From Candidatus Ratteibacteria bacterium (GTDB lineage Bacteria > Ratteibacteria > UBA8468 > MWAK01): a DNA stretch of 64,000 nt. Every line of letters starts with the position of its first letter. Position 1 is the first letter of the stretch. A program made the translations under genes and the position numbers. The stretch lies in contig JBAZEZ010000005.1 of assembly GCA_041653615.1 (NCBI GenBank), forward strand, positions 23,289-87,288, in the 5' to 3' direction. Positions 7,024-54,719 of this stretch are shown in pieces. The notes under the pieces are model-generated. The model had not been told where the DNA came from, made no database searches, and worked only from the letters and a program-made list of their open reading frames with translations.

Positions 7024-7169
7024 TGTTCACTTTTGTTAAGGCATTTTTTGTTCAAGTATTGGTACAAATTTGTGCAGTATGTACAAATTGGAACGCATGT
7101 TTGATTTTTCTTTGATAACATTTTGACAAAAACAGCGTATTTATGTTCTAATATTGGAAACGTTGCAAT

Positions 7170-7257
7170 ACGGGGAGGTCGTAAAAGCGGCCTGAGAGTT
7201 TCGAGAAACCATCGGATAACCCGCGGAACCTGATCTGGATAATGCCAGCGTAGGGAA
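7170..7257 (+). ncRNA. TPP (THI-box) riboswitch aptamer
   Basis: ACGGGGAGG...GCCTGAGAG...AACCTGATCTGGATAATGCCAGCGTAGGGAA matches the THI-box consensus (CTGAGA; ACCTGATCTGGATAATGCCAGCGTAGGGAA). Confidence 0.85.
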
Positions 7258-7275
7258 AAAAGTTCAGATGTTAAT

Positions 7276-18628: not shown

Positions 18629-18641
18629 GTGACCCCCTTTG

Positions 18642-18743
18642 TTGGACGCAGATTACCGCAGATACAGATTAAAGATTGTTTTAGCGAATTACCAAAAAAT
18701 GCTCTTTTGCATTATCCTGCTGTTTCTGCGTATATCTGCGTCC
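18642..18743. mobile_element. MITE-like element, family A, copy 1 (TIR TTGGACGCAGAT ... ATCTGCGTCC)
   Basis: Terminal inverted repeats are perfect, with shared internal blocks (cgcagata, cagattaaaga, ctgcgtatatctgcgtcc). The other copies are at 21999-22122, 29832-29963 and 45482-45598. Confidence 0.7.
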
Positions 18744-21700
18744 TATTTAATAGATTTTTTCTTCCAGAGAAAATAGATGGCGGGATAGACGATTAATTCC
18801 ATGCCGAAGGAAGTGAATATGCCGCCGACCATCGGCGCGGCGATTCGCTTCAGTACGTCGGCGCCGATTTCATGCGTCTGTGCCCACATGATAGGGAGCA
18901 GTCCGATGAAAAGGACCGAGGCGGTCATTACCTTGGGCCGGACCCGTTTTACCGCGCCGTGGATGATGGCCTCCTTCAGGTCGTTGATTGTTTTCAGGAG
19001 GCCGTTCTTCTTCCGTTCTTCGTAGGAAAGATCCAGGTAGAGCAGCATGAAGATTCCGGTCTCCGCGTCCACGCCCAGCAGGGCGATGATTCCGACCAGG
19101 ACGCCGATGCTCAAGTTGTAATGGAGCAGGTAGAGTATCCAGACGACACCGATGAGGGAAAAGGGAACCGCCAGCAGGACGATGAAGGTCTTGGGAAAAC
19201 TCCGGGTATTGAAATAGAGGAGGAGGAAGATGATGAGGAGCGTCAGAGGCACGACCACCTTCATCCGTTCCTTCACCCGCTGCATCGACTCGTATTGGCC
19301 GCTGAAAACCAGGTTATAGCCGGCCGGGAGTTTCAGGTTATCGTTTAATTCTTTTTTGGCGTCGGCGACGTAACTGCCGATGTCCCGGTTGGCCACATCG
19401 ATGTAGACGTATCCGGCCAGCGACCCGTTTTCATCCCGAATCATGGACGGACCCGAACTTAATTCTACGTCGGCAATCTGTCCGACGGGGATTTGGCTTC
19501 CGGACGGCGTGGGGATGTAGGTCTTTTTTATCTTTTCGACGTCGTCCCTCAATTCCCGCGGGTAGCGGACGTTTATCGGCAGCCGCACCCGGCCTTCTAC
19601 GGTCTGGCTGATGTTTTCGCCGCCGATGGCGGACATCAGCGTTGTCTGAACGTCTTCTACGGTTAGTCCGTAGCGGGCAATCTCTTCTCTTTTGAGCGTA
19701 AAGTCCACAAAATAACCGCCGCCGGTCCTTTCCGCGTAGATGCTGCGGGTTCCCGGCACTCCTTTGAGCAGGGCTTCAATTTGCAGGCCGATTTCTTCGA
19801 CTCTTTTTAAATCATCTCCTTGGATTTTTATCCCGACCGGGGTGCGGATTCCGGTAGTCAGCATATCAATCCGGGCCTTGATGGGCATCGTCCAGGCGTT
19901 GACCTGGCCGGGGATTTGTAATTTCTGGTCCATTTCCTGAATCATTTCGTCCCAGGAAATTTTGTCCGGCCAGAGCAGCCGCAGGGAAGGCTGAAGAAAT
20001 TCCGGGACGCGGTTGGAATACCACCTGGGTTTGGAGCGCCACTGGTTCTGGGGTTTAAGTAAAACGGTTGTTTCCATCATGGAGTAGGGCGCCGGGTCGG
20101 TAGAGGTGGCGGCCCGGCCTGCTTTGCCGAAGACGCTGGTAACTTCCGGAAACGACTTAAGAATCTTATCCTGAACACCCAGCAGTTTGGTTGCCTCTGT
20201 CACCGAAATGCCGGGCGGAGTGGTTGGCATATATAAGATGCTGCCCTCATTGAGCGGAGGCATAAATTCCGTGCCCAGTTTGAAGAAGAACGGCATGGAA
20301 ACCAGAAAGAGAAGCACGGTCGAGAAGATGACAAGGCGCGGTTTACGCAGGACAAAATGGACAACTGGTTCGTACCATTTGAACAGGGCCCGGCTGACCG
20401 GGTGTTTTTCTTCGGAGTGAATCCGGCCCACCAGGAGGTGGTTGACTATCCCGCAGAGCCATTTCGGTTTGAATTCGTAAAAGTCGAGTTTGGTAAAGAG
20501 GAGCCGGATGGCCGGGTCAAGCGTAATGGCCAGAACCGCCGCAAAGAAGAGCGCGAAATTTTTGGTGAAGGCCAGTGGTTTGAAAAGACGACCTTCAATT
20601 CCTTCCAGGGTGAAGATAGGCATAAAGGCGACCGCGATGACCAGCAGGGAGAAGAAAGAAGCCTGGCCCACTTCTTTAATGGCGCTGATTAAGACTTCCC
20701 GGTAATCTCCCTGTCTGCCTCCCTCTTCCCAGTGAGAAAGTTTTTTGTGGGAGTTTTCCACCACCACAATGGCCGCGTCCACCATGGCGCCGATGGCGAT
20801 GGCGATGCCGCCCAGGCTCATTATGTTGGCGGTCAGTTTCATGTAGTACATCGGGATGAAAGCGATTAAGACCGCGATGGGCAGCGTGATGATGGGGATG
20901 ATTGCGGAAGGGAAATGGAGCAGGAAGAGGAGGATGATTAAACTTACCACAATCATTTCCTCGCGGAGTTTGCTTTTCAGAGTGTTGATGGCGCGATGGA
21001 TTATCTCGGAGCGGTCGTAGGTGATTACCAGTTTTACGCCTTCGGGGAGTTGGATTGTCTTCAATTGTTCTTTGACCCGGTTGATGACCTCCAGGGCGTT
21101 TTCCTGATACCTGATTATGACAATGCCGCCGACTACTTCGCCCCGGCCGTTCAATTCCGCCACGCCCCGTCTGATGTCCGGCCCGAATTGGACTGTGGCG
21201 ACGTTACTGATTCGTACCGGTACGCCGTTTTGGTCGGTTTTAAGGACGATATCCTCTATGTCTTTCAGCGATTTGAGGTAGCCCCTGATGGTTACCATGT
21301 ATTCCCGGCCGGAGATTTCCAGGAGCCGGGCGCCGGCTTCCTGGTTGGATTTTTGCAGGGCCATAACCACGTCATTGAGCGGGAGGTTGTAAGCGAGCAG
21401 GGCGTTGGGGTCAATGGTCACCTGATACTGTTTGGTGAAGCCGCCGACCGAGGCAACTTCCGAAACTCCCTTGACCGATTGCAGGGCGTACTTCAGGCGC
21501 CAGTTCTGGAAGGTGGTCAAATCTTCCAGGGAATTTTTGCCGGTATCGTCGACCAGAGCGTATTCAAAGACCCACCCCAGCCCGGTGGCGTCAGGACCGA
21601 TTTCCGTCTGAACCCCGGGCGGCAGTTGGGATGTTACCTTGGAGAGGTATTCTGTTACCCTGGAGCGGGCCCAGTAGATGTCGGTTCCGTCTTCAAAAAC

Positions 21701-21998: not shown

Positions 21999-22122
21999 TT
22001 TGGACGCAGATTACGGCAGATAATTGCGGATACATATTAAAGATTAATTCAGAGAATTGCTAAGAAATACTCTAAAATTATCCCTTAGTATTATCCTGTA
22101 TTTTCTGCGTATATCTGCGTCC
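21999..22122. mobile_element. MITE-like element, family A, copy 2
   Basis: tttggacgcagattacggcagata...ttctgcgtatatctgcgtcc. It lies between the adaptor and RND genes. Confidence 0.7.
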
Positions 22123-22128
22123 AGTTTC

Positions 22129-23165: not shown

Positions 23166-23255
23166 TATGTAGGGGAGGGGCTACGTCCCCTCCCGCCTAC
23201 GCTAAAGCTACGGCGGGCACAGCCCGCGGGCGGGGATTCAACCCCGCCCCTACAG
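23166..23255. repeat. GC-rich REP-like composite hairpin element
   Basis: tgtaGGGGAGGGGCtacgtCCCCTCCC ... GGGCGGGGattcaaCCCCGCCCctacag. It is related to 994-1105 and 41085-41140. Confidence 0.6.
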
Positions 23256-23257
23256 TT

Positions 23258-24580
23258 TTAAAACAACATTTCTTTTTCCGGTGAGACACCGGCGATAGAG
23301 AGGGATATTTCGTTTAAGGTTATTTCTCTTAATCCTTGCGCCGAAAGGTAATTAACGGAAAAGTCAAGAAAAGTCCGTTCCGCGTTCAATAAGTCGGCCA
23401 GATTGGTCTTTCCCGTTTGATACCCGGATTGAGCTATTTGGGTGGCCGCTCGGCTTTTTGGCAGGAGGTTTTCCCGGTAGAGTTTCACTTCCCGGTCTGC
23501 CTGTCTCCAGCGGAAGAGCCCGTCGGCCAGCCCTGCGGCTAAATCCAGTTCCTCGGCCGAAAAGGCCGCTTCCGTCATCTTTACGGTGCTCTTGGAAGCG
23601 GCAATCTGGCTGGCGGCTTTTCCCGGCCAGGGAATTGATATTGACAGCAAGGGCCTGGTGAGAGCCATTCCGGAAAAGAGGCCCTGCATCAAACCGATAT
23701 TAAAATCAGGCCATTGCTCCTTGTATGCCAACTTAACATAAACTTCACTCTGTTCTATCTCGTTTCGCAGGAGAGCCAGGCGGGGGTTTTTGGCCTGGAC
23801 GGATTCCCAGATATTTTTTTCCGAAAAACCTGCTTCGGTGAAGGGCAGGGCGGCTGGCGGTTTTGGAATCCGGTCAGATTGGAGTATGCCTAAAGCGGCG
23901 CCGAATTGGGCAATCAACACTTTTTCGGAATCTTTAAAGTTCGCCAGCATATTGGCCAGCTTCTCTTTTTCAATCTGGATTGTAATCGGGTCAAGCAGGG
24001 ATGACTCGTTGGTCTTTACCCTGGCTAAACTCACGTTTTCCTGTGCTTGAAGAAGTTTTAATATATCTTCCGTGAGTGTAATCTTTTCTTCCAGGACCCA
24101 GAACTGATAGGAAATTTCTTTTACCCGGAAAGCGGTTTGAAAGACCGCTGCTTCAAAAAGATGACTATTTTTGCCGGCTTCCAGGGAAGCCGCTTCGCCG
24201 GAAAGGGAAAGCTTGCCGGGCGCCGGTATCGTAAACATGATGCCGGGCATCAAAGAATCTATGACGCTGTTAAAATCCAAAAGTGAAAGCTGGGGATTGG
24301 CCGGGTACTTGGAGGCGTTAATCGCCTCCACCGCGTTTTTCCACTGGTAGAAAGCCTCTTCCACTCTGGGGTTGTTGAGGACCGCGTACTTAACAAAATC
24401 TTTGAGTTCCGAATCGGCGGTCAAGACCGGCAATTGGGGTCTGGCGTCTTTCGGCCGGTACTGTTTTTCAACCCGGGCAATCTTTTCTCTTTCGGCTTTC
24501 TCAACTTTGGTGGCCGGACCGGCGCAACCGGAGATTACTAAAAGAAGCGAGACGCAAATTAGTAAAAGTCTGGTCTTCAT
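23258..24580 (-). CDS. TolC-family outer-membrane efflux lipoprotein (CusC-like)
   Basis: The lipobox LLVISGCAG and two repeat halves with coiled coils are characteristic of OEP family proteins. Confidence 0.8.
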   Translation of the reverse strand: MKTRLLLICVSLLLVISGCAGPATKVEKAEREKIARVEKQYRPKDARPQLPVLTADSELKDFVKYAVLNNPRVEEAFYQWKNAVEAINASKYPANPQLSLLDFNSVIDSLMPGIMFTIPAPGKLSLSGEAASLEAGKNSHLFEAAVFQTAFRVKEISYQFWVLEEKITLTEDILKLLQAQENVSLARVKTNESSLLDPITIQIEKEKLANMLANFKDSEKVLIAQFGAALGILQSDRIPKPPAALPFTEAGFSEKNIWESVQAKNPRLALLRNEIEQSEVYVKLAYKEQWPDFNIGLMQGLFSGMALTRPLLSISIPWPGKAASQIAASKSTVKMTEAAFSAEELDLAAGLADGLFRWRQADREVKLYRENLLPKSRAATQIAQSGYQTGKTNLADLLNAERTFLDFSVNYLSAQGLREITLNEISLSIAGVSPEKEMLF

Positions 24581-28766: not shown

Positions 28767-29807
28767 TTAAATCAGTCGGGCAAGTTTTTCCGTTATTGCC
28801 CAGTATGGGTCGGTTTTTGGGTGTTCCAGGTTAAAGGCGTGGTTGCCCGCGGTAATTTTCAGGCCGTCTTCTTGCCCGGTGACTTCGCCGACGATACTGC
28901 TTAAGATGTTGTTTTTCGTAAACGCCGATACCAGCTCTCCGGCTTCTTTGGGGTCCACCACGGCGATGAGCGTGCCCTCGCTGATGGTTGCGAATGGGTC
29001 AATTTGGAAGTGTTCGCAGGTCTTGATGATAACCTCCTGCTTTACGATTAAATCCTGTTCAACCTTTATCCCGTATTTGCCGGCCCGCGCCATTTCATAG
29101 AGGCCTCCCCATATTCCGCACTCGGTGGCATCGTGCATTACCCGCACTCCCGGGAACTCCCGGGCGACGGCGCAGTCGTCCATGACGGACATCTGGAAGA
29201 ATACGTCCTGGGCCTTCTTTTGAAAGTCCGCTCCAAAAGCCGCCTGGAATTTTTCGGGAAAAGAGATGGCCAGCAGCCCGGTTGTTTCAATGGCCGGCCC
29301 CTTGGTTATAATAATCTGGTCGCCAATCTTTACCCGGTGGGGACCGCGCAGTTCCGCTTCGGTTCCCTGGGCGATGGCGGTGGCGCCGCCCACCATCGGA
29401 TAGTTGCAGCCGGCGTAACGGGCGGTGTGGCCGGTGATAATGCTGATGTTGTATTTCTCGGCTTCCCGGTGGACCGATTCCCACATTTCCGTTAACTGCG
29501 CTTCGGTTATTTCCGGCGGAAGATTAAGATCGACGGTAAGGTACCGGGGTTTCAGTCCGGATACGGCGACGTCCGAGCAGATAATGTGAAAAGCAAACCA
29601 GGCCGCCCGGCTGAATCCGTATGCCGGGACGATGAAGAACGGGTCGGTCGAGAACGCGAGGCAGGTATCGCCAATCTTCACCACGCCGTAATCAACGCCG
29701 TGGCGCGGTCCGATGATGACATTTTTATCCTTGGCGCCCAGGCGCGGATAGATAACCCGGTCAAAAAATTCCGGGTGGATTTTCCCGAGTTCCGGCAGTT
29801 TTTCCAT
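28767..29807 (-). CDS. AIR-synthase-related (PurM-like) family protein
   Basis: The PurM-superfamily N-domain pattern DYGVVKIGDTCLAFSTDPF... and a C-domain are present. The specific member was not identified. Confidence 0.45.
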   Translation of the reverse strand: MEKLPELGKIHPEFFDRVIYPRLGAKDKNVIIGPRHGVDYGVVKIGDTCLAFSTDPFFIVPAYGFSRAAWFAFHIICSDVAVSGLKPRYLTVDLNLPPEITEAQLTEMWESVHREAEKYNISIITGHTARYAGCNYPMVGGATAIAQGTEAELRGPHRVKIGDQIIITKGPAIETTGLLAISFPEKFQAAFGADFQKKAQDVFFQMSVMDDCAVAREFPGVRVMHDATECGIWGGLYEMARAGKYGIKVEQDLIVKQEVIIKTCEHFQIDPFATISEGTLIAVVDPKEAGELVSAFTKNNILSSIVGEVTGQEDGLKITAGNHAFNLEHPKTDPYWAITEKLARLI

Positions 29808-29831
29808 AATTTAATTGTATAGGGATTTCTT

Positions 29832-29963
29832 TTGGACGCAGATAAGCGCAGAAATAACAAGATAATGATTAAGAGATAATTTAAGAGTAATTCTTTAGAG
29901 CACTTCTTTAAAGTAATCTTTAATAATCTGTATCTGCGTTTATCTGTGGTAATCTGCGTCCAA
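29832..29963. mobile_element. MITE-like element, family A, copy 3
   Basis: ttggacgcagataagcgcagaaata...ctgtatctgcgtttatctgtggtaatctgcgtccaa. Confidence 0.7.
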
Positions 29964-29972
29964 TGAAGTTAA

Positions 29973-31298
29973 TTATTTCTGACTTTTGCCCAGGGCCTGG
30001 TCAAGGTCCGCGATGATGTCTTCGGTGTTCTCCAATCCCACCGAGAGCCGGACGTAATCTTCGGTAACGCCGGTGCTGACCTGTTCCGCCGGGGTCAGCT
30101 GTTGGTGCGTGGTGCTGGCCGGATGGATAATCAGGGTTTTGGCGTCGCCGATATTGGCCAGGTGCGATATCAGTTTTACCGATTCAATCAATTTACGACC
30201 TGCTTCCTTGCCGCCTTTAATCCCGAACCCGAGGATACCGCCGAAGCCTTCTTTCAGGAAGGTCTTTGCCCTTTCGTGGTCCGGATGCCCGGGAAGTCCG
30301 GGATAATTTACCCAGGAGACGGCCGGATGTTTTTCCAGCCAGGCCGCGCAGGTTAGGGCGTTGATGGAATGCTGGCGCACCCGCAAGGGCAGGGTTTCAA
30401 TTCCCTGGATAATCTGGAAGGAGTTGAAAGGCGAGATACAGGGGCCGAGGTCCCGGAGGAGATTGACCCGCGCTTTAAGAATGTAAGTCAGGCCCGGCGC
30501 CACCGCTTTATCGTGATTGCCGAAGGCCTGCCAGAAAGAGAGGCCGTGGTAAGACGGGTCCGGCTCGGTCAGTTCTGGAAACTTTCCGTTGGCCCAGTTA
30601 AAGGCGCCGCCGTCCACAATGGCGCCGCCGATGCTGGTTCCGTGTCCGCCCAGGAATTTGGTCAGCGAATAAACGATGATGTCCGCGCCCAGGTCAAAAG
30701 GTTTCAGGAGCGGCGGCGGTGAAACGGTGTTGTCGATTATCAGCGGGATGCCCTGTTTGTGGGCGACGGCCGCGATTGCTGGGTAATCGTCAACGTTATT
30801 TTTAGGGTTGCCGATGGATTCCAGGTAAAGGAGCCGGGTATTTTTGTCGATGGCGGCGGCAAAGTTTTTCGGGTCGGCGGAGTCCACGAACCTTACTTCA
30901 ATTCCAAATCGGGCCAGGGTGTAGTGAAAAAGAGTGTAGGTCCCGCCGTAGAGATAACTGGTGGAGACGATATTCTGGCCGGATTTGGTGATGTTAAGTA
31001 TCGCCAGGGTAATTGCCGCCTGGCCGGAAGCAACCGCCAGGCTGCCGGTACCGTTGTCCAGGGCGGCAAGCCGCTTTTCCAGGACGTCGGTGGTCGGGTT
31101 CTGTATTCGGGTATAAATATTACCGAATTCTTTCAGGGCGAAGAGGTCGGCCGCGTGCGCGGTATTTTTAAAGACATAACTGGTTGTCTGGTATATCGGC
31201 ACCGCCCGCGAACCGGTGGTCGGGTCCGGTTCCTGGCCGGCGTGTAAGGCCAGCGTTTCCACTTTCTGTTTTGTTTTACCCCTTCCGTTTTTTTCCAT
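29973..31298 (-). CDS. metY: O-acetylhomoserine/O-acetylserine sulfhydrylase (PLP-dependent, MetY family), paralog 1
   Basis: [28 protein letters not shown] is a canonical Cys/Met-metabolism PLP-enzyme N-terminus. The PLP Lys region [10 protein letters not shown] is present. Confidence 0.85.
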
Positions 31299-37996: not shown

Positions 37997-38045
37997 AATA
38001 AAAAACCCCTTAGGCAGGCGGTATCGCATGCAATAAGGGGTGTCC
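37997..38045 (-). terminator. intrinsic terminator of the second TPP riboswitch
   Basis: The mRNA sense reads GGACACCCCUUAUUGCAUGCGAUACCGCCUGCCUAAGGGGUUUUUUAUU. Confidence 0.6.
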
Positions 38046-38057
38046 AGGTTCATGCTT

Positions 38058-38146
38058 CTTCCCTCCGCTGGTATTACCCAGATCAGGTTCTGCGGGTTAT
38101 CTGTTTACTTCTCAGAACTCTCAGGCCGCTCTTACGACCTCCCCGT
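38058..38146 (-). ncRNA. TPP (THI-box) riboswitch aptamer, second copy
   Basis: The reverse complement reads ACGGGGAGGUCGUAAGAGCGGCCUGAGAG...AACCUGAUCUGGGUAAUACCAGCGGAGGGAAG, roughly 85% identical to 7170-7257. Confidence 0.85.
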
Positions 38147-38203
38147 TTAATTATTGATAATATTAAAGCATACCTGCGCTGTTACTGTCAAAATTTTGCA
38201 GCG

Positions 38204-41084: not shown

Positions 41085-41140
41085 TGTAGGGGCGGGGTTA
41101 CATCCCCGCCCGCGGGAGGGGCACAGCCCCTCCCCTACAT
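41085..41140. repeat. GC-rich REP-like composite hairpin element
   Basis: tgtaGGGGCGGGGttacatCCCCGCCCgcGGGAGGGGCacaGCCCCTCCCctaca. The first hairpin is identical to the one at 997-1019. Confidence 0.6.
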
Positions 41141-45300: not shown

Positions 45301-45476
45301 CGATAGCGATTGGGCTTGGCGCTCACGCGGCCGGCCGGCGTCCTCTGGGATTGGCGGTGGCCGGCGGCCTTTTGTTTTCGCAGATACTGACCCTTTATTT
45401 GACCCCGGTCTTCTTTACCTATATGGAGGATTTCAAAAAGTGGCTGAAGCGGTTTTCCCGGCATAAAAATTTATAA
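42375..45476 (+). CDS. multidrug efflux RND transporter permease (AcrB/HAE1 family)
   Basis: The 1033-aa protein begins MSISEIFIRRPVATVLISIAILLAG, a typical HAE1 start, and has 12 TM helices. Confidence 0.9.
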   Translation: MTGRKTMSISEIFIRRPVATVLISIAILLAGVVGFKLLPQSTMPNIDLPTIQVTAALPGASPETMASSVATPLEKEFSAISGLDSMNSTSSTGMTQITLQFNLSRKIDAAAQDVQAAISIASYQLPSDMPAPPSYQKINPAIQPILFLNVTSETMPLSRVNYYASKYISQRLSMVDGVAQVQVYGAQKYAVRIQLDPEKLAAHSVGMDEVVAAIKAGNVNLPTGVLNGSARTFTVESNGQLENADAYRNLIIAYRNESPLRLGEVAQVIDSVEEIRTAAWLNNDQRALVLAIQRQPGTNTVAVVDRVRKLLPELQAQLPASIKLEIFFDMSQSIRESVREVKFTLLITMLLVIMVIFLFLRNVPATVIPGAALAMSIIGTFAVMYFSGFSLNILSLMALSLCTGFVVDDAIVMLENIVRHVEHKEEPYQAALNGSKEIGFTIIAMTLSLVVVFVPVLFMGGVLGRIFKEFAVTISAAILISGFISLFLTPMLCSRFLRVHPVGEKHNRFYNYLENGLAWLRLGYEKSLRKVMEYRLVTIVIGFVVLIATGFLFARIPKGFIPNEDWNVLLTQTEAVQGISFDSMAAHQRAVAEVIGRNSNVEMIMHVVGFMGTANTGFMFVRLKPRVERTLDADGVIESLRGEISGIPGIKVFMQNPPAIPIGAHEMKSPYQFTLQSPNTAELYRYTEILEEKMKGIEGIQDVSSDLQMQNPQVKVEIDRDKASALGISSYQIEDLLFSAYGSRKVSTIFMPEDQYNVILELQDQYQRDPSALSKLYLHSNTGALIPLSAVVKTGQSVGPVSINHQGQLPSATIAFGLKPGISLGGASAAVKKMAIETLPTSINGNFQGTAQVFQSSAKGFLWLFLGAILIIYIVLGILYEDFIHPITILSGLPSAAFGALLALLIFRMELNIYAIVGILMLIGIVKKNAIMMIDFAVQGMRNEGKSGKEAILDGCLIRFRPIIMTSTAAFIGSLPIAIGLGAHAAGRRPLGLAVAGGLLFSQILTLYLTPVFFTYMEDFKKWLKRFSRHKNL

Positions 45477-45481
45477 ATTAT

Positions 45482-45598
45482 TTGGACGCAGATTTTCGCA
45501 GATAACCGCAGATACAGATTAAAGAATTGCTTTAAATAAGTACCTTAAAATTATCGTCTGATCCTTATCCCGTAGTTTCTGAGCTTATCTGCGTCCAA
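45482..45598. mobile_element. MITE-like element, family A, copy 4
   Basis: ttggacgcagattttcgcagataaccgcagatacagattaaagaattg...gagcttatctgcgtccaa. It starts 6 nt after the RND stop codon. Confidence 0.7.
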
Positions 45599-45638
45599 AG
45601 GAAATTCTTAGGTAATTAAATTATTTCAGGAGGTTGTT

Positions 45639-47266: not shown

Positions 47267-48517
47267 ATGCCAACTGACGATTTTAACGAAAAAACAAATT
47301 CGAGAGTCAGCCAAAAAGAAGGCCGGGACATTCGCGGAGGGCAGACCGAAGAAGACCAGACAGCGGCTGTACAGCTTTCCAATATCGTAAATCAGGCGAT
47401 TAGTTCCAAAGCAACTGACATTCACCTGGAAGTAGAAGAAAACGGACCTAAGCTCCGCTACCGGATTAACGGCATCCTTTATGAGTTTCCGGCGCCTTCC
47501 GCCGAACTTTACTCCCGCGTTATTTCCCGGTTGAAGGTCCTCTCCGACCTTGATGTTTCCGAAAAGAGAATTCCGCAGAGCGGCTATGCTTCCTACCGGG
47601 CCGGAGACCGGAAGATTGACATGAGAATTTCCATCTTCCCTTCCATTTTTGGCGAGTCTTCATCTATCCGCGTTTTGGACCGCAACAATATCGTCCTGGG
47701 TTTTGACCGGCTTGGGTTTTCCCCGGAGATACTGCCGCAGTATCTCCGTCTGCTGGAATTGACTTCCGGAATGGTCCTGGTAACCGGACCGACCGGCGGG
47801 GGAAAGACTACCACGTTGTATGCTTCGCTTAACAAAATTCGGAACGGACGAAAAAAAGTTATTACGCTTGAAGACCCGGTGGAGTATCATATTGCCGGCG
47901 TTACCCAGGGGCAGATAAATCCCAAAGCCGGTTTCACCTTCGCGGCCGGGTTGAGGTCAATCTTGCGGCAGGACCCGAACGTGGTTATGGTTGGTGAAAT
48001 TCGGGATACCGAAACCGCGGCTACCGCCATGCAAATTTCTTTAACGGGTCAGATGGTTTTTGCCACGCTTCACACCAATACCGCCCCGGGCGCGGTAACC
48101 CGGCTCCTGGATATGGGAATTGAGCCCTATCTGGCGGGTTCCTCTCTGGTGGGTGTAATCAACCAGACGCTGGTGGGCCATATTTGTCAGAAATGCAAAG
48201 AAGAGTATCAGCCGGACCCGGATATTTTGGTCGAAGCAGCCGGTGATTTGGAGAAGTTCGGGAAGATAAAATTTTTACGGGGCAAGGGTTGTCCGAATTG
48301 CAACCAGTCCGGTTATCAAGGAAGGATTGGACTGTATGAACTCATGGTTATCAATTCTCGGCTCCGGGCGACAATTTTGCGGAAACCTTCTACGGAAGAG
48401 GTGACCGGCGTGGCTCTTGAATCCGGTATGATAACGATACGGCAGGACGGCTTGAAAAAAGTGGCCGAAGGTATCGTTACGATTGAAGACATGGTTCAGG
48501 TTACCCGTCGCGAATAG
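47267..48517 (+). CDS. GspE/PilB-family secretion ATPase (short form lacking N1 domain)
   Basis: VTGPTGGGKTT is a Walker A motif. Asp/His boxes are present. CQKCKEEY...CPNCNQSG is the tetracysteine motif. Confidence 0.8.
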   Translation: MPTDDFNEKTNSRVSQKEGRDIRGGQTEEDQTAAVQLSNIVNQAISSKATDIHLEVEENGPKLRYRINGILYEFPAPSAELYSRVISRLKVLSDLDVSEKRIPQSGYASYRAGDRKIDMRISIFPSIFGESSSIRVLDRNNIVLGFDRLGFSPEILPQYLRLLELTSGMVLVTGPTGGGKTTTLYASLNKIRNGRKKVITLEDPVEYHIAGVTQGQINPKAGFTFAAGLRSILRQDPNVVMVGEIRDTETAATAMQISLTGQMVFATLHTNTAPGAVTRLLDMGIEPYLAGSSLVGVINQTLVGHICQKCKEEYQPDPDILVEAAGDLEKFGKIKFLRGKGCPNCNQSGYQGRIGLYELMVINSRLRATILRKPSTEEVTGVALESGMITIRQDGLKKVAEGIVTIEDMVQVTRRE

Positions 48518-48518
48518 T

Positions 48519-48637
48519 CCGATTCGTCTTCATTCATATAGCGGCGTTGGCCGCGCGTCAGCTTCCTCGGCGTACTTCCGTGTACGCCTTCGTTGTTTAC
48601 TTCTCGCCGCCTTGCTCTATTTCTGAATACGAATCGG
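48519..48637. mobile_element. MITE-like element, family B, copy 1 (TIR CCGATTCGTCTTCATTCAT ... TTCTGAATACGAATCGG)
   Basis: It begins 2 nt after the gspE-like stop. A near-identical copy lies at 52660-52780. Confidence 0.65.
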
Positions 48638-48647
48638 TGTACAATTT

Positions 48648-49337
48648 ATGTTTATCAATAATTATAAGCGGTTGCTAAAAGCGGCGCAGGTTGGGGACGC
48701 CGCTAAAATCGGCGTCCTGATAGATAGAAAAGCCGATGTTAACGTCCGGAACAGCCGCGGGCTTACGGCTTTGCTGATTGCGGCGCGAAACGGCTGCGAA
48801 GACGCGGTAAAGGTTTTGCTCTCCGGCGGCGCGGATGTGAATGCCGCAGACGAGCAGGGAAATACCGCCCTGATAACGGCGGTGGAGCAGAATTATTTGG
48901 AAATCGTAAAGACGCTATTGGCGGGAGACGCGGTAGCGGACCGTTGCAATCATGGGGGCGAGACGGCTTTGATGACGGCTTCCAGGAAAGGTTTTGCCGA
49001 AATAGCGGAGTTGTTGATAAAAGGCGGAGCAGATGTTAATCTTAAAGACAAAGAAGGCGTCACGGCTCTGATGCTGGCGGCGGCGCGCGGCCACACCGGG
49101 ACAGTCCGGATGTTGATAGAAGGCCGGGCGGATTTGAATGCCCGGAACAATATTGGTTTTACCGGTCTGATGTTTGCCTGCTGGAAGGGACGGACCGAAA
49201 CGGTGAAGGCGTTGCTCGCCGGTGGCGCGGATGTTAATGTTAAGAAAGAGGACGGTGTTACCGCCATGATGTCCGCGGCTGTCGCCGGGCACGCGGAGAT
49301 TGTTCAGATAATCAAGGATGCCGGCGCCAAAGGATGA
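48648..49337 (+). CDS. ankyrin-repeat protein (about 6 repeats)
   Basis: Repeated G.TALM.AA..GH..IV..LL..GADVN units are present. Confidence 0.85.
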   Translation: MFINNYKRLLKAAQVGDAAKIGVLIDRKADVNVRNSRGLTALLIAARNGCEDAVKVLLSGGADVNAADEQGNTALITAVEQNYLEIVKTLLAGDAVADRCNHGGETALMTASRKGFAEIAELLIKGGADVNLKDKEGVTALMLAAARGHTGTVRMLIEGRADLNARNNIGFTGLMFACWKGRTETVKALLAGGADVNVKKEDGVTAMMSAAVAGHAEIVQIIKDAGAKG

Positions 49338-51462: not shown

Positions 51463-52659
51463 ATGAACAAACCAAACAAAAAGAAAAGATTGCTGGTTTT
51501 CGGTTCTATTCTCGCGATTTTGTTTTTGGTCATTCTGGCGGTTAAAATCGCGAAAAACAAGGAATCGGCGCCCAAGTTCCGCACCGAAAAGGTGACCCGG
51601 GGAGATGTTGTTACCACGGTTACGGCGACCGGCGCCATTAATCCGGTGACCACCGTCCAGGTCGGTACCCAGGTTTCCGGCACCATCAAGCGATTGTTCG
51701 TGGATTTTAATTCCACGGTGCGGAAAGGGCAAATGATTGCCCAGATAGACCCGACCTCCCTTGAGGCTCAGGCGGAACAGCAGCGGGCCGGTCTTATTTC
51801 CGCAAAGGCTAACGTAATCAAAGCGCAGGCGTCTCTCCTTGATGCCGACCGGACTTATAAACGCGACCAGGAACTCTTTTCCCGGAACCTGATCGCGCGC
51901 AGCGAATTGGACGTTGCCGAAACCAACTACCAGGCGAATGTGGCTTCGGTTGACGCGGCCAAGGCCCAGGTGACTCAGGCGCAGGCGTCTCTGAAGTACG
52001 TGGAGACCAACCTTGGTTACGCGAGGATAGTTTCTCCGGTGGATGGAATCGTTATCTCCCGCAATGTTGACGTTGGTCAGACGGTGGCCGCCAGTTTTTC
52101 AACGCCGACCTTGTTTACTATTGCCCAGGACTTGACCAAGATGCAGATTGACGCCAGCGTGGCGGAAGCGGATATCGGAAGCATCAAAAACGGCCAGCCG
52201 GTGGAATTTACCGCCGACGCTTATCCGGAGGATATATTTCACGGCTCGGTCTGGCAAATTAGAAATGCGGCCATAACTGTTTCAAACGTGGTTACCTATG
52301 ATGTAGTAATCAGGATGGATAATAAGGACTTGAAGTTAAAGCCCGGTATGACCGCCAACATTTCGTTTATTATTTCCACCCGGAAGGGCGTTCTGCGCGT
52401 GCCGGACGGCGCCTTAACTTTCATTCCTTCAGACGTTAAATCTAATGGCAAGTCAAAGGATAGGGGGGCAGGGGTCTGGATTCTCCAGGACGGAAAGCCG
52501 AACCGAGCCGGGGTGACTACGGGTGAAAGCAACGGTACTTTTACGGAAATTACTTCAGGTCAACTGCAGGAGGGTGGCTTGGTAATAACCGGTTATCTTG
52601 TTTCGCCTAAGAATAATTCCGGGAACAACTCAGGGCAGCGTCCGCCCAGAATGTTTTAG
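51463..52659 (+). CDS. MacA-like periplasmic adaptor (HlyD family)
   Basis: An N-terminal TM is followed by a coiled-coil hairpin and beta-barrel. It lies upstream of an ABC ATPase and FtsX permease. Confidence 0.8.
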   Translation: MNKPNKKKRLLVFGSILAILFLVILAVKIAKNKESAPKFRTEKVTRGDVVTTVTATGAINPVTTVQVGTQVSGTIKRLFVDFNSTVRKGQMIAQIDPTSLEAQAEQQRAGLISAKANVIKAQASLLDADRTYKRDQELFSRNLIARSELDVAETNYQANVASVDAAKAQVTQAQASLKYVETNLGYARIVSPVDGIVISRNVDVGQTVAASFSTPTLFTIAQDLTKMQIDASVAEADIGSIKNGQPVEFTADAYPEDIFHGSVWQIRNAAITVSNVVTYDVVIRMDNKDLKLKPGMTANISFIISTRKGVLRVPDGALTFIPSDVKSNGKSKDRGAGVWILQDGKPNRAGVTTGESNGTFTEITSGQLQEGGLVITGYLVSPKNNSGNNSGQRPPRMF

Positions 52660-52780
52660 CCCAATTCGCCTTCATTCATATAGCGGCGTTGGCTTCGTCA
52701 GCAGCTTCCTCGGCGTACTTCCGTGTAAGCCTGCGTCGCTGCTTCCTTGCCGCCTTGTTCTATTTTTGAAGGCGAATTGG
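52660..52780. mobile_element. MITE-like element, family B, copy 2
   Basis: cccaattcgccttcattcatatagcggcgttggc...tatttttgaaggcgaattgg. It begins 1 nt after the macA-like stop. Confidence 0.65.
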
Positions 52781-52800
52781 TATAAATTTCGGTATAAATT

Positions 52801-53493
52801 ATGACTCTGCTTGAACTTTCCGGAGTATCCAAGGTTTATAATTTGGGCGATGTCAGTGTGACCGCGCTCAATAATGTTTCGGCTAACGTGGAAGAAGGTG
52901 ATTTCCTGGCGATTATGGGTCCCTCCGGTTCCGGGAAGTCAACCTTTATGAATATTGTCGGTTGTCTGGATAAACCAACTTCCGGACGTTATTTGCTGGA
53001 AGGCAAGGAAGTCGGCCGGCTGGACCGGGACACCCTGGCCGCCGTCCGGAATGAAAAACTCGGTTTTGTCTTCCAGGGTTTTAACCTTCTTTCCCGAACT
53101 TCAGCTTTGGAGAACGTGGAACTTCCGATGCTTTATTCCGGGGTTCCTTCGGGAGAGAGAAGGCGCAAAGCTTTAGCCATGCTTAAGTCCGTAGGTTTGG
53201 AAGGCAGGGAAAGACATTATCCCAACCAATTATCCGGCGGGCAGCAGCAGCGGGTCGCCATCGCCCGGGCCATCGTCAACGACGCAGCGGTTTTACTGGC
53301 CGACGAACCGACCGGGAACCTTGATACTCATACCAGCGCTGGAATAATGGAACTCTTCGTAAAACTCAATCGCGAATCTGGCATTACCGTTATCCTAGTA
53401 ACTCACGAACCGGATATCGCCGCGTACAGCAAACGTATCCTGAGATTTTTGGACGGTAATATCATTGCCGACGAAAAAAGAAGCCTGATATGA
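52801..53493 (+). CDS. MacB-like ABC transporter ATP-binding protein
   Basis: [24 protein letters not shown] and [11 protein letters not shown] are present. Confidence 0.85.
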
Positions 53494-54719
53494 TTAGCGT
53501 AAGCGCCACTATCAAAATTTCCCTAAGGGCTTTGCAGACCAACAAGATAAGGTCAGGCCTTACCATCCTGGGTATTGTGATTGGCGTGGGCGCGGTAATC
53601 GCCATGCTGGCCATCGGCAATGGTGCGCGTCAGCAGATTACCGACCAGATTTCCAGCATCGGTAGTAATCTTTTGATGGTGCGGTCCGGTTCGTCCGCTT
53701 CCGGAGGGGTAAGAATGGGCGCCGGTACTCAACCGACCCTGACCTTGCTGGACGCGGAAGCAATTATAAAAGATTGCCCTTCGGTAACCGCGGCCGCTCC
53801 GGTAGTTAACGGCGGAGCGCAGGCGATAAACGGCAATAAAAACTGGTCAACTTCCGTCACCGGAAGCACTCCGGACTTTTTAGAAGTCAGAGATTGGCAG
53901 GTGGCCGAGGGCCGTTCGATAACCGACCAGGACGTTCGGAGCGCGGCCAAGGTCTGCCTGTTGGGCGCCACCGTGGTTGACAACCTCTTTGGTGACCAAC
54001 CTCCGACCGGTAAGGTCATCCGGCTTAAAAATATGCCCTTTATGGTGGTTGGCATGCTGGCCAGCAAAGGTCAGTCGGCGATGGGCCAGGACCAGGACGA
54101 TGTCATTATAGTGCCGGTAACGACCGCCCAGAAGAAGCTCTTCGGCACTTCTTTTCCCGGAATGGTTAATACCATTACGGTGAAGGCGAACAGCGCCGAA
54201 GGAACCAAATCGGCGCAACAAGAGATAGAGAACCTTTTAAAACGCAGGCACCACATCGGTTTGGGAAAAGACCCTGATTTTACGGTCCGCGACCTTACCC
54301 AAATCATGCAGGCCGCCGAACAATCCAGCCAGGTTATGACTATTCTGCTGGGCGCTATCGCTTCCATCTCGCTGTTGGTGGGCGGAATCGGCGTGATGAA
54401 CATAATGCTGGTCTCGGTTGCCGAGCGGACCCGTGAAATCGGCATTCGGATGGCGGTTGGCGCCAAGACTTGGGACATACGCCTCCAATTTATCACCGAG
54501 GCCCTGACCCTATCCCTCATCGGCGGAATTATCGGAATCATGTTTGGCGTAATCGGCGCCAAGGTTATTTCCGTAAAGGCCGGCTGGCCGACCGCCGTGT
54601 CGCTTTCCTCGATTATGATGTCCTTCGGTTTTTCCGGTTTCGTGGGCATCTTCTTCGGTTTCTACCCCGCCTACAAAGCTTCCCTGCTTAACCCCATCGA
54701 CGCCCTCCGGTACGAATGA
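53490..54719 (+). CDS. MacB-like ABC transporter permease (FtsX family)
   Basis: An N-terminal TM and periplasmic domain are followed by three TM helices and a C-terminal ...LNPIDALRYE. Confidence 0.85.
   Translation: MISVSATIKISLRALQTNKIRSGLTILGIVIGVGAVIAMLAIGNGARQQITDQISSIGSNLLMVRSGSSASGGVRMGAGTQPTLTLLDAEAIIKDCPSVTAAAPVVNGGAQAINGNKNWSTSVTGSTPDFLEVRDWQVAEGRSITDQDVRSAAKVCLLGATVVDNLFGDQPPTGKVIRLKNMPFMVVGMLASKGQSAMGQDQDDVIIVPVTTAQKKLFGTSFPGMVNTITVKANSAEGTKSAQQEIENLLKRRHHIGLGKDPDFTVRDLTQIMQAAEQSSQVMTILLGAIASISLLVGGIGVMNIMLVSVAERTREIGIRMAVGAKTWDIRLQFITEALTLSLIGGIIGIMFGVIGAKVISVKAGWPTAVSLSSIMMSFGFSGFVGIFFGFYPAYKASLLNPIDALRYE

Follow-up and report, generated by a model that had tools for sequence, protein, structure and literature searches.

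The 64,000-nt stretch of contig JBAZEZ010000005.1 analyzed here (the window), from a Candidatus Ratteibacteria genome, carries two copies of a short palindromic element, copy A and copy B, each of which lies in the spacer between two genes of one direction (Table 1). Copy A separates the gene of a GspE/PulE-type ATPase (T2SSE, after its Pfam domain) from that of an ankyrin-repeat protein, and copy B separates the gene of a MacA-like adaptor from those of a MacB-like transporter. The original prediction, made from the letters of this DNA, had described them as two copies of about 120 nt and about 85% identity that form a family resembling miniature inverted-repeat transposable elements (MITEs), are non-coding, have inverted termini and start directly after the stop codons of gspE-like and macA-like genes. 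Both copies were found at the places named, with copy B starting at 52661, one base past the predicted 52660, and the gspE-like, macA-like and macB-like gene calls are backed by Pfam. The copies align end to end with 83% identity over the element, as compared with the predicted figure of about 85%. Their likeness ends at the element borders, which indicates that the flanks of copies A and B are unrelated. Two 23-mers from the element occur twice each in the window versus zero times in 100 shuffles, and no third copy was found in the 64 kb by a profile hidden Markov model or a covariance model (CM). The stop codons of the T2SSE gene (TAG, 48515-48517) and of the MacA-like gene (TAG, 52657-52659) are each separated by 1 nt from the copy that follows, and 20 nt lie between the end of copy B and the ATG of the ABC ATPase gene (52801).

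Table 1. Positions in the window of the two copies of the element, their parts and the neighboring genes.
Feature	Positions	Strand	Remarks
GspE/PulE-type type II secretion system/type IV pilus (T2SS/T4P) ATPase gene	47267..48517	+	Pfam T2SSE, E 2e-113; orthologues share end codon
Copy A, palindromic element, core CCGATTCG...CGAATCGG	48519..48637	+	CM 135 bits; T2SSE-ankyrin junction, co-oriented with transcription
Copy A terminal stem, left arm CCGATTCGTCTTCA	48519..48532	+	13/14 paired with 48624-48637
Copy A apical hairpin GGCGTAC-TTCCGT-GTACGCC	48569..48588	+	conserved in the family; also in the T. lovleyi relative
Copy A terminal stem, right arm TGAATACGAATCGG	48624..48637	+	
Ankyrin-repeat protein gene	48648..49337	+	Pfam Ank; ATG 10 nt past copy A
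MacA-like periplasmic adaptor (HlyD family) gene	51463..52659	+	Pfam HlyD_D23; NCBI name efflux RND adaptor
Copy B, palindromic element, core CCAATTCG...CGAATTGG	52661..52780	+	CM 142 bits; MacA-like/MacB-like junction, co-oriented with transcription
Copy B terminal stem, left arm CCAATTCGCCTTCA	52661..52674	+	14/14 paired with 52767-52780
Copy B apical hairpin GGCGTAC-TTCCGT-GTAAGCC	52712..52731	+	one mismatch
Copy B terminal stem, right arm TGAAGGCGAATTGG	52767..52780	+	
Tandem duplication GGTATAAATT-TC-GGTATAAATT	52779..52800	+	from the final two bases of copy B up to the macB ATG
MacB-like transporter, two genes	52801..54719	+	Pfam ABC_tran (52801-53493) and MacB_PCD/FtsX permease (53490-54719)

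The element is 119-125 bp long, and the inverted termini that had been predicted are the ends of a long imperfect palindrome, or hairpin, which takes in the whole element. Folded as RNA on the + strand, copy A reached -45.6 kcal/mol (z -4.7) and copy B -50.1 kcal/mol (z -5.6), in agreement with the strong hairpin that the original prediction had proposed as a check. The opposite strand of both copies folds equally well or better, and across all copies the fold energies ranged from -45 to -55 kcal/mol, with z scores from -4.7 to -8.2. At the base of the hairpin is a 14-bp terminal stem, to which most copies add 2-3 extra pairs. Its two arms, CCRATTCGYCTTCA and TGAAKRCGAATYGG, are paired at 11-14 of the 14 positions in all nine Omnitrophota copies described below, with a conserved C-T mismatch at position 10. 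Inward of the stem follow an internal loop, a second helix, a variable middle and a conserved apical hairpin (GGCGTAC-TTCCGT-GTACGCC). The ends of the element read (A)TACC... and ...GGTA(T), and ATAG occurs internally on both arms.

In accordance with its predicted non-coding nature, no open reading frame (ORF) of 80 aa or more runs across the element. Six-frame translation of the 126-nt family consensus left two frames, +0 and -2, without a stop codon, but a coding function is excluded despite these open frames by 1-nt insertions or deletions between copies and by the stop codons directly upstream. Rickettsia palindromic elements are known to be inserted in frame into genes. A promoter scan detected no sigma-70-like promoter in the element, and a terminator scan gave a single weak terminator-like call on the apical hairpin of copy A, which is not conserved in copy B. 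Rfam 15 at gathering thresholds, applied to the window and seven loci, gave no match on any copy, and permissive Rfam scans of copy A (E <= 10) and of the Trichlorobacter lovleyi locus described below (E <= 1) gave no match as well.

Other copies were sought by two exact scans, one with a 21-mer in bacterial contigs, with one genome per species, and one with a 20-mer in JGI metagenomes. The 21-mer scan led to two metagenome-assembled genomes (MAGs) of Candidatus Omnitrophota, JAHJUB01 (3 contigs) and JAPLMK01 (1 contig), and the 20-mer scan led to 5 metagenome contigs, 2 of which duplicate MAG loci. Altogether, we recognized nine distinct full-length copies with unrelated flanks (two in the window and seven at other loci), in at least three genomes plus metagenome contigs, as well as three decayed remnants (L017, L023 and L025). 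Hence, the family is dispersed, with the same element at seven other unrelated Omnitrophota loci and a diverged copy on a T. lovleyi plasmid. The pairwise identity of the nine copies is 81-94% (mean 87.5%), and pairs from different genomes can be more alike than copies A and B (94% for L004 and L007, 92% for L010 and copy B). Such a star-like pattern of similarity is typical of transposable-element families. The number of copies is a lower bound, as an exact-match search misses diverged copies, such as the L023 remnant. Additionally, we did not take the invariance of the block CTTCATTCATATAGCGGCGTTGGC for a sign of constraint; the block overlaps the exact search pattern, and the invariance of a block by which the copies were found carries no information. 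Searches of viral contigs and of phage GenBank entries gave no match to the element, and a phage origin was rejected on these grounds. In the short metagenome contigs L005, L006, L009, L010, L011 and L012, the element tends to be only 95-160 nt from a contig end; the adjoining sequence may also be repeated, or assemblies may break nearby.

The comparison of orthologous junctions revealed the element in various states of preservation. The macA-macB junction is free of it in L013 (MacA 89% identical, 15-nt spacer), L014 (88%, 16-nt spacer) and L015 (68%, 4-nt spacer). At the T2SSE-ankyrin junction, compared between relatives with 89-91% identical T2SSE, L023 has a 64-nt spacer with the element minus about 60 central bases, and L017 has only CACCATTCCGCCTTTAT and CGGT left as a terminal vestige; the vestige and the L023 remnant have in common an 11-nt run at an equal offset. 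The spacer of L019 at this junction is an unrelated 21-nt sequence, and the MAG to which L019 belongs, JAPLMK01, has a full copy elsewhere (L007). The metK-coaE junction carries a full copy in reverse orientation in L004, a 72-nt degenerate remnant in L025 (MetK 91%) and an unrelated 31-nt spacer in L026 (MetK 91%). Full, deleted, vestigial and absent states at orthologous junctions are the signature of insertion and decay. As these junctions do without the element in close relatives, it is dispensable. Its behavior, namely gain at some sites, dispensability, drift at roughly the non-coding rate and internal deletion, is as expected of selfish DNA, not of an essential regulatory site.

Several side observations concern the same junctions. 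Other hairpin-rich inserts occupy the T2SSE-ankyrin junction in L022 (8122-8252, 131 nt) and L024 (1911-2125, 215 nt), and a 342-nt insert built of other repeats occupies the metK-coaE junction in L027 (1736-2077, MetK 94%); these short operon spacers thus serve several repeat families as shared landing pads. The start of the ankyrin gene in the window (48638-48650 region; MFINN...) is 4 codons downstream of the start of some orthologues (M[IV]QN[IL]FISN...; L017, L019 and L022). The former start region is recognizable as GTACAATTT directly past copy A, and L023 and L024 have the short form too. A weak covariance-model match at L017 12780-12886 falls within a coding region and was judged spurious.

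The paired structure of the element is preserved in spite of sequence changes. In the nine copies, RNAalifold found 40 pairs, 8 of which show a pair-preserving change on both sides. In a 37-pair structure that we specified ourselves, 94.9% of the cells of the nine-copy alignment were paired, and the number of double-change pairs was 8, as compared with 2.3 +/- 1.0 in column shuffles (0/500 reached 8) and with 0-4 in registers slid by 1-3 columns. When the T. lovleyi copy was added to the alignment, 12 out of 39 pairs showed a compensatory change. The terminal stems of copies A and B differ by compensated changes at position 3 (G-C/A-T) and position 9 (T-A/C-G), which indicates that pairing is being maintained. 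It could be kept by selection for transposition competence, of the termini or of a single-strand hairpin, by selection on RNA, or by repair of the quasi-palindrome templated by its other arm. A tally of single-sided changes on the transcribed strand, made from the RNAalifold alignment, showed no clear preference for G-U over A-C, which does not favor an RNA-specific constraint. The orthologous copies L005 and L011 are 87% identical, as compared with 94% for their coding flank and 86% for their non-coding flank; inserted copies drift at about the non-coding rate. The copy in L011 contains a nested 28-nt palindrome with a perfect stem (CCCTTTCCAGATCTTTGGAAAGGG, 186-213), which is absent from its L005 orthologue.

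A diverged relative of the element was found outside Omnitrophota. A blastn search of plasmids gave one match, in pGLOV01 of Trichlorobacter (Geobacter) lovleyi SZ (79% over 71 nt, E 2e-3 versus 7.3 Gb); this was the single locus in the plasmid collection, the remaining matches being short chance ones. The neighbors of the pGLOV01 element are the TAA stop codon of a DUF2149 gene on one side and cobN on the other. It was recognized over its full length, with 45.9 bits (E 1.5e-8 for 0.4 Mb searched), by the covariance model of the Omnitrophota copies, on the + strand only; true copies also score 26-48 bits on the reverse strand. Its inverted termini are 19 bp long (TTCCGATTCCATTTCAAGG), its apical hairpin and overall fold are those of the Omnitrophota copies, with energies of -43.9 kcal/mol on one strand and -54.8 kcal/mol on the other, and its identity to these copies is about 67%. 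We judge it to be genuinely related to them, though distantly. The TTG annotated as the start of cobN is inside this element, with an in-frame ATG at 1609 (L028 1579-1609), which indicates that the annotated start is probably too far upstream.

The precise placement relative to stop codons, predicted from copies A and B, is seen again at most independent loci. When the element is read in its own direction, its left end, the CC terminus, follows a stop codon by 1-2 nt at seven loci. The stop codon and the gap before the CC terminus are TAG-T in copy A, TAG-C in copy B, TAG-CA in the L017 remnant, TGA-TG in L007, TGA-TA in L010, TAA-TT in T. lovleyi, and TAA-CA in L006, where the upstream gene is not callable. 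The left end of L009 is 5 nt from a stop. Thus, at 5 of the 6 independent loci with a called upstream gene the element starts within 2 nt of the stop codon (binomial p about 4e-4, assuming that about 15% of positions in a 15-20-nt spacer qualify). The element is co-oriented with transcription at 7/9 loci, a bias that is not significant alone, and the reversed loci, L004 and L005/L011, show no stop abutment. The right foot is usually 4-27 nt before the next start codon, so that hardly any of the spacer is left outside the element. Comparison with orthologues shows the abutted stop codons to be ancestral; the element did not bring them. The abutment might mean that the element, as IS200/IS605-type elements do, prefers targets with a short T[AG][AG]-like motif and enters them in one orientation. 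It might also reflect the survivorship of those insertions in which the base of the stem rejoins the stop and start codons and spares translational coupling and downstream initiation.

Among cultured bacteria, Proteobacteria, Neisseria and streptococci are well known to carry small palindromic repeats. A full-text search of the Omnitrophota literature for the phylum name together with 'miniature inverted-repeat' found no such repeats described. The kind of element is already well known, and this family is undescribed. Closest in form are the ERIC, Correia and REPIN elements. ERIC, or IRU, is a 127-bp imperfect palindrome of enterobacteria that forms a long RNA stem-loop, is flanked by TA and is non-coding; it occupies transcribed intergenic regions by ORF ends, is present in some and absent from other relatives, and influences flanking mRNA depending on its orientation (PMC3184786, PMC2229807). 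Our element resembles ERIC in size, in being an imperfect palindrome over its whole length, in its intergenic position by ORF ends, in its lack of coding function and in its presence or absence between relatives. It differs from ERIC in its host phylum and in that a TA duplication is not demonstrable for it. To our knowledge, a strong abutment of one end on stop codons is not a defining feature of ERIC. A blastn search (word size 11, E <= 0.1) of 5,426 complete E. coli genomes with the family consensus gave no match; as E. coli genomes contain ERIC, we rejected a descent of the element from ERIC.

Correia (NEMIS) elements of Neisseria and RUP of S. pneumoniae are non-autonomous elements of 100-160 bp with inverted termini and TA flanks, which are co-transcribed and form hairpins that are substrates of RNase III (PMC2229807). 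They are MITEs of the IS630 type with defined TA duplications, whereas no such duplication was found for our element. RUP has a candidate cognate insertion sequence (IS630-Spn1) and our element has none that we found, and the integration host factor (IHF) sites and promoters carried by Correia elements were not detected in it. REPINs are hairpins of about 100 nt in which two conserved inverted blocks are separated by a less conserved spacer and compensatory changes are frequent; they make no duplication, and decayed singlets persist as remnants (PMC3116915). Unlike them, our element ends without REP units tagged with GTAG/CGTC, and no RAYT gene is present in the 64-kb window; on these two grounds we rejected its assignment to classical REP/REPIN sequences. 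Families of palindromic repeats are found in Geobacter genomes, where the intergenic regions that they occupy are a non-random subset and often hold several of them (PMC2996986), and it is on pGLOV01 of T. lovleyi that the true relative of our element occurs. The published supplementary repeat alignments of G. bemidjiensis contain none of four motifs of the element, and no description of this particular family was found.

Taken together, these results make it likely that the copies are members of a non-autonomous palindromic mobile family, which is moved in trans, inserts or survives at operon junctions by the stop codon, is co-transcribed as a hairpin and decays neutrally. Its known sequences indicate that the family is resident in the Candidatus Omnitrophota ('Ratteibacteria') clade and has a diverged relative in Geobacterales. 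In terms of the criteria for bacterial MITEs (taken from PMC3184786), the element is small (below about 400 bp), lacks a transposase gene, has terminal inverted repeats and an RNA stem-loop, and occurs as dispersed copies with insertion polymorphism (full, remnant and empty states at three orthologous junctions). Its dispersal, its presence or absence at orthologous sites and its recurrent adjacency to stop codons sustain the original designation of the family as MITE-like at exactly that strength; as neither a target-site duplication nor a cognate transposase was found, we retain 'MITE-like' and do not use 'MITE'. According to the mechanism that we propose, the element would be moved by an enzyme encoded elsewhere in the genome and would insert or survive almost only in very short spacers of co-transcribed genes, with its left end at the stop. 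Transcribed together with these genes, it would form a stable hairpin of about 55 bp in the RNA between the cistrons; as a by-product, this hairpin may change how the mRNA is processed, how stable it is, or how translation of MacA is coupled to that of MacB and translation of T2SSE to that of its neighbor. The analogy of ERIC and Correia elements (PMC2229807, PMC3184786) makes effects on macB or the ankyrin gene plausible; the absence of the element from relatives argues that no such effect is required.

As to the mobilizing enzyme, a TA-targeting DDE transposase of the IS630/Tc1 type is a possible candidate, which we propose tentatively because TA flanks the element more often than any other dinucleotide does, on the left as well as on the right. 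A single-strand (HUH) hairpin transposase of the IS200/IS605 or RAYT type is a weaker candidate, suggested by the lack of duplication, the orientation bias, the end abutting a short fixed motif and the covariation of the hairpin. What probability these two leave belongs to an enzyme of some other kind.

Several observations weigh against a mobile family of this kind, or against the enzymes considered. No target-site duplication was found, and TA is present on both sides in only 4/9 copies. The flank variants CA/TG and TG/CA are complementary and look like an extension of the stem, not like direct repeats, and the filled and empty spacers at macA-macB and metK-coaE are too diverged to be aligned or to allow for reconstruction of the target. 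The tandem duplication that straddles the right end of copy B (Table 1) looks like slippage, not a target-site duplication. No transposase or RAYT was found among about 60 ORFs of the window, and neither a solo terminus nor a longer element with these ends was found in 230 kb of related loci; an IS1595-family gene in L017 is not flanked by the termini of the element. Additionally, few copies were seen (2 in the 64 kb of the window, at least 3 in one MAG), and copies at different loci and in different genomes are 88-94% alike, as compared with only about 70% for third codon positions of orthologous genes between these genomes. This excess likeness has to be accounted for by recent activity, by transfer between lineages, by conversion between copies or by sequence constraint. 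Finally, the 7/9 orientation bias and the stop abutment are not expected from random insertion by a DDE transposase, and could result from selection on RNA function.

The original prediction itself had named the circumstance that would speak for another origin, namely that only these two copies exist and come from a local segmental duplication. The two copies are indeed the only ones in 64 kb and lie 4.1 kb apart. However, their flanks are unrelated, the number of chance matches expected is 0, and the element occurs at other loci in other genomes, so that a local duplication, or a chance similarity confined to the window, is ruled out with only a negligible probability left to it. Integron attC sites, such as the 120-nt Vibrio cholerae repeats at the boundaries of gene cassettes, are likewise imperfect palindromes of about 120 nt that directly follow stop codons, are mostly co-oriented and are 80-90% alike. 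However, the core sites RYYYAAC/GTTRRRY are absent from both ends and both strands of eight Omnitrophota copies (L011 not included) and of the T. lovleyi copy, and the window encodes no integrase domain. Moreover, the flanking genes are conserved operon partners that are adjacent also where the element is missing, and one copy is reversed between metK and coaE. The missing core sites, the lack of an integrase in the window and the syntenic flanks rule out an attC identity, which we regard as next to impossible.

A different reading is that the element is a selected, cis-acting intercistronic RNA hairpin, with one foot at the stop codon and the other at the start codon, that sets the relative expression of adjacent cistrons, any mobility being secondary; it could act as a barrier to 3'-exonucleases, as an RNase III/E site, or as a structure melted by ribosomes that couples downstream initiation. 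Compensatory changes keep the pairing, one of them even between the orthologous copies L005 and L011; a single orientation prevails at 7/9 loci, the left end is 1-2 nt from the upstream stop at 5/6 independent loci with a called upstream gene, and the T. lovleyi relative has equal placement and orientation. Copies that are more alike than synonymous sites between genomes would fit such a role, and ERIC and Correia elements provide precedents for effects at the RNA level (PMC2229807, PMC3184786). Nevertheless, we consider it decidedly unlikely. The element is dispensable, as close relatives lack it at the same junctions; it is eroded by internal deletion in L023, L017 and L025; and orthologous copies diverge like non-coding DNA. 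The operons in which it is found have unrelated functions (efflux, secretion ATPase, metK-coaE, priA, RNase G and cobN), and two loci carry the element in reverse orientation. The element has no canonical terminator or promoter and no Rfam match, and G-U is not clearly preferred to A-C among its single-sided changes. Rather less improbable, though still doubtful, is that the element is REPIN-like, that is, hairpin DNA moved in single-stranded form by a RAYT or an IS200/IS605-type HUH enzyme, beside a short motif, in one orientation and without duplication. No duplication is detectable, the orientation is biased and one end lies at the short motif T[AG][AG]N1-2. The full-length palindrome with conserved sub-terminal blocks and compensatory changes is as described for REPINs (PMC3116915), and GTAG-tagged REP-like hairpins elsewhere in the window hint at such machinery. 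On the other hand, the element does not consist of two recognizable REP units of 20-40 nt and its ends lack the GTAG/CGTC tag (criteria of PMC3733652), the window encodes no Y1 transposase, and the conserved left block is partly an artefact, being the search pattern.

We also considered a bolder possibility, a hairpin transposon that homes to stop codons. Such an element would target the nucleotide 3' of stops in a fixed orientation in two phyla, perhaps through a single-strand HUH mechanism, and the geometry of its feet, foot to stop and foot to start, would preserve or tune translational coupling and mRNA fate. This appears improbable at present. If it were true, mobile DNA would include a class that homes to stop codons and brings a regulatory consequence with it.

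The element is not the only repeat of the window. A second dispersed family, with termini TTGGACGCAGAT...ATCTGCGTCCAA, occurs at 18641-18748, 21999-22127, 29806-29978 and 45467-45624; it has inverted termini and internal GCAGAT-like iterations, lies in intergenic spacers, and a piece of it is present in the metK-coaE spacer of L027 (1989-2026). The GC-rich, GTAG-tagged hairpins mentioned above (TGTAGGGGCGGGG-TTACAT-CCCCGCCC) are at 990-1020, 23223-23258 and 41085-41116; they are REP-like and hint at a RAYT-type system in the genome, and a piece related to them is present in the T2SSE-ankyrin spacer of L024. Thiamine pyrophosphate (TPP) riboswitches at 7161-7274 (+) and 38043-38155 (-) are about 86% alike, and each is upstream of a Thi4-family gene.

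With the element being probably a non-autonomous mobile family, the compact genomes of uncultured Omnitrophota would carry active or recently active selfish hairpin DNA, which, together with other repeat families, accumulates in the few nucleotides between operon genes. The element would explain variable intergenic lengths, possible assembly breaks and miscalled starts, such as the TTG start of cobN in T. lovleyi. The feature most worth following is the abutment on stop codons in an orientation common to two phyla. Whether the stop adjacency comes from target choice or from selection for translational coupling, it would be testable in a culturable bacterium, T. lovleyi SZ.

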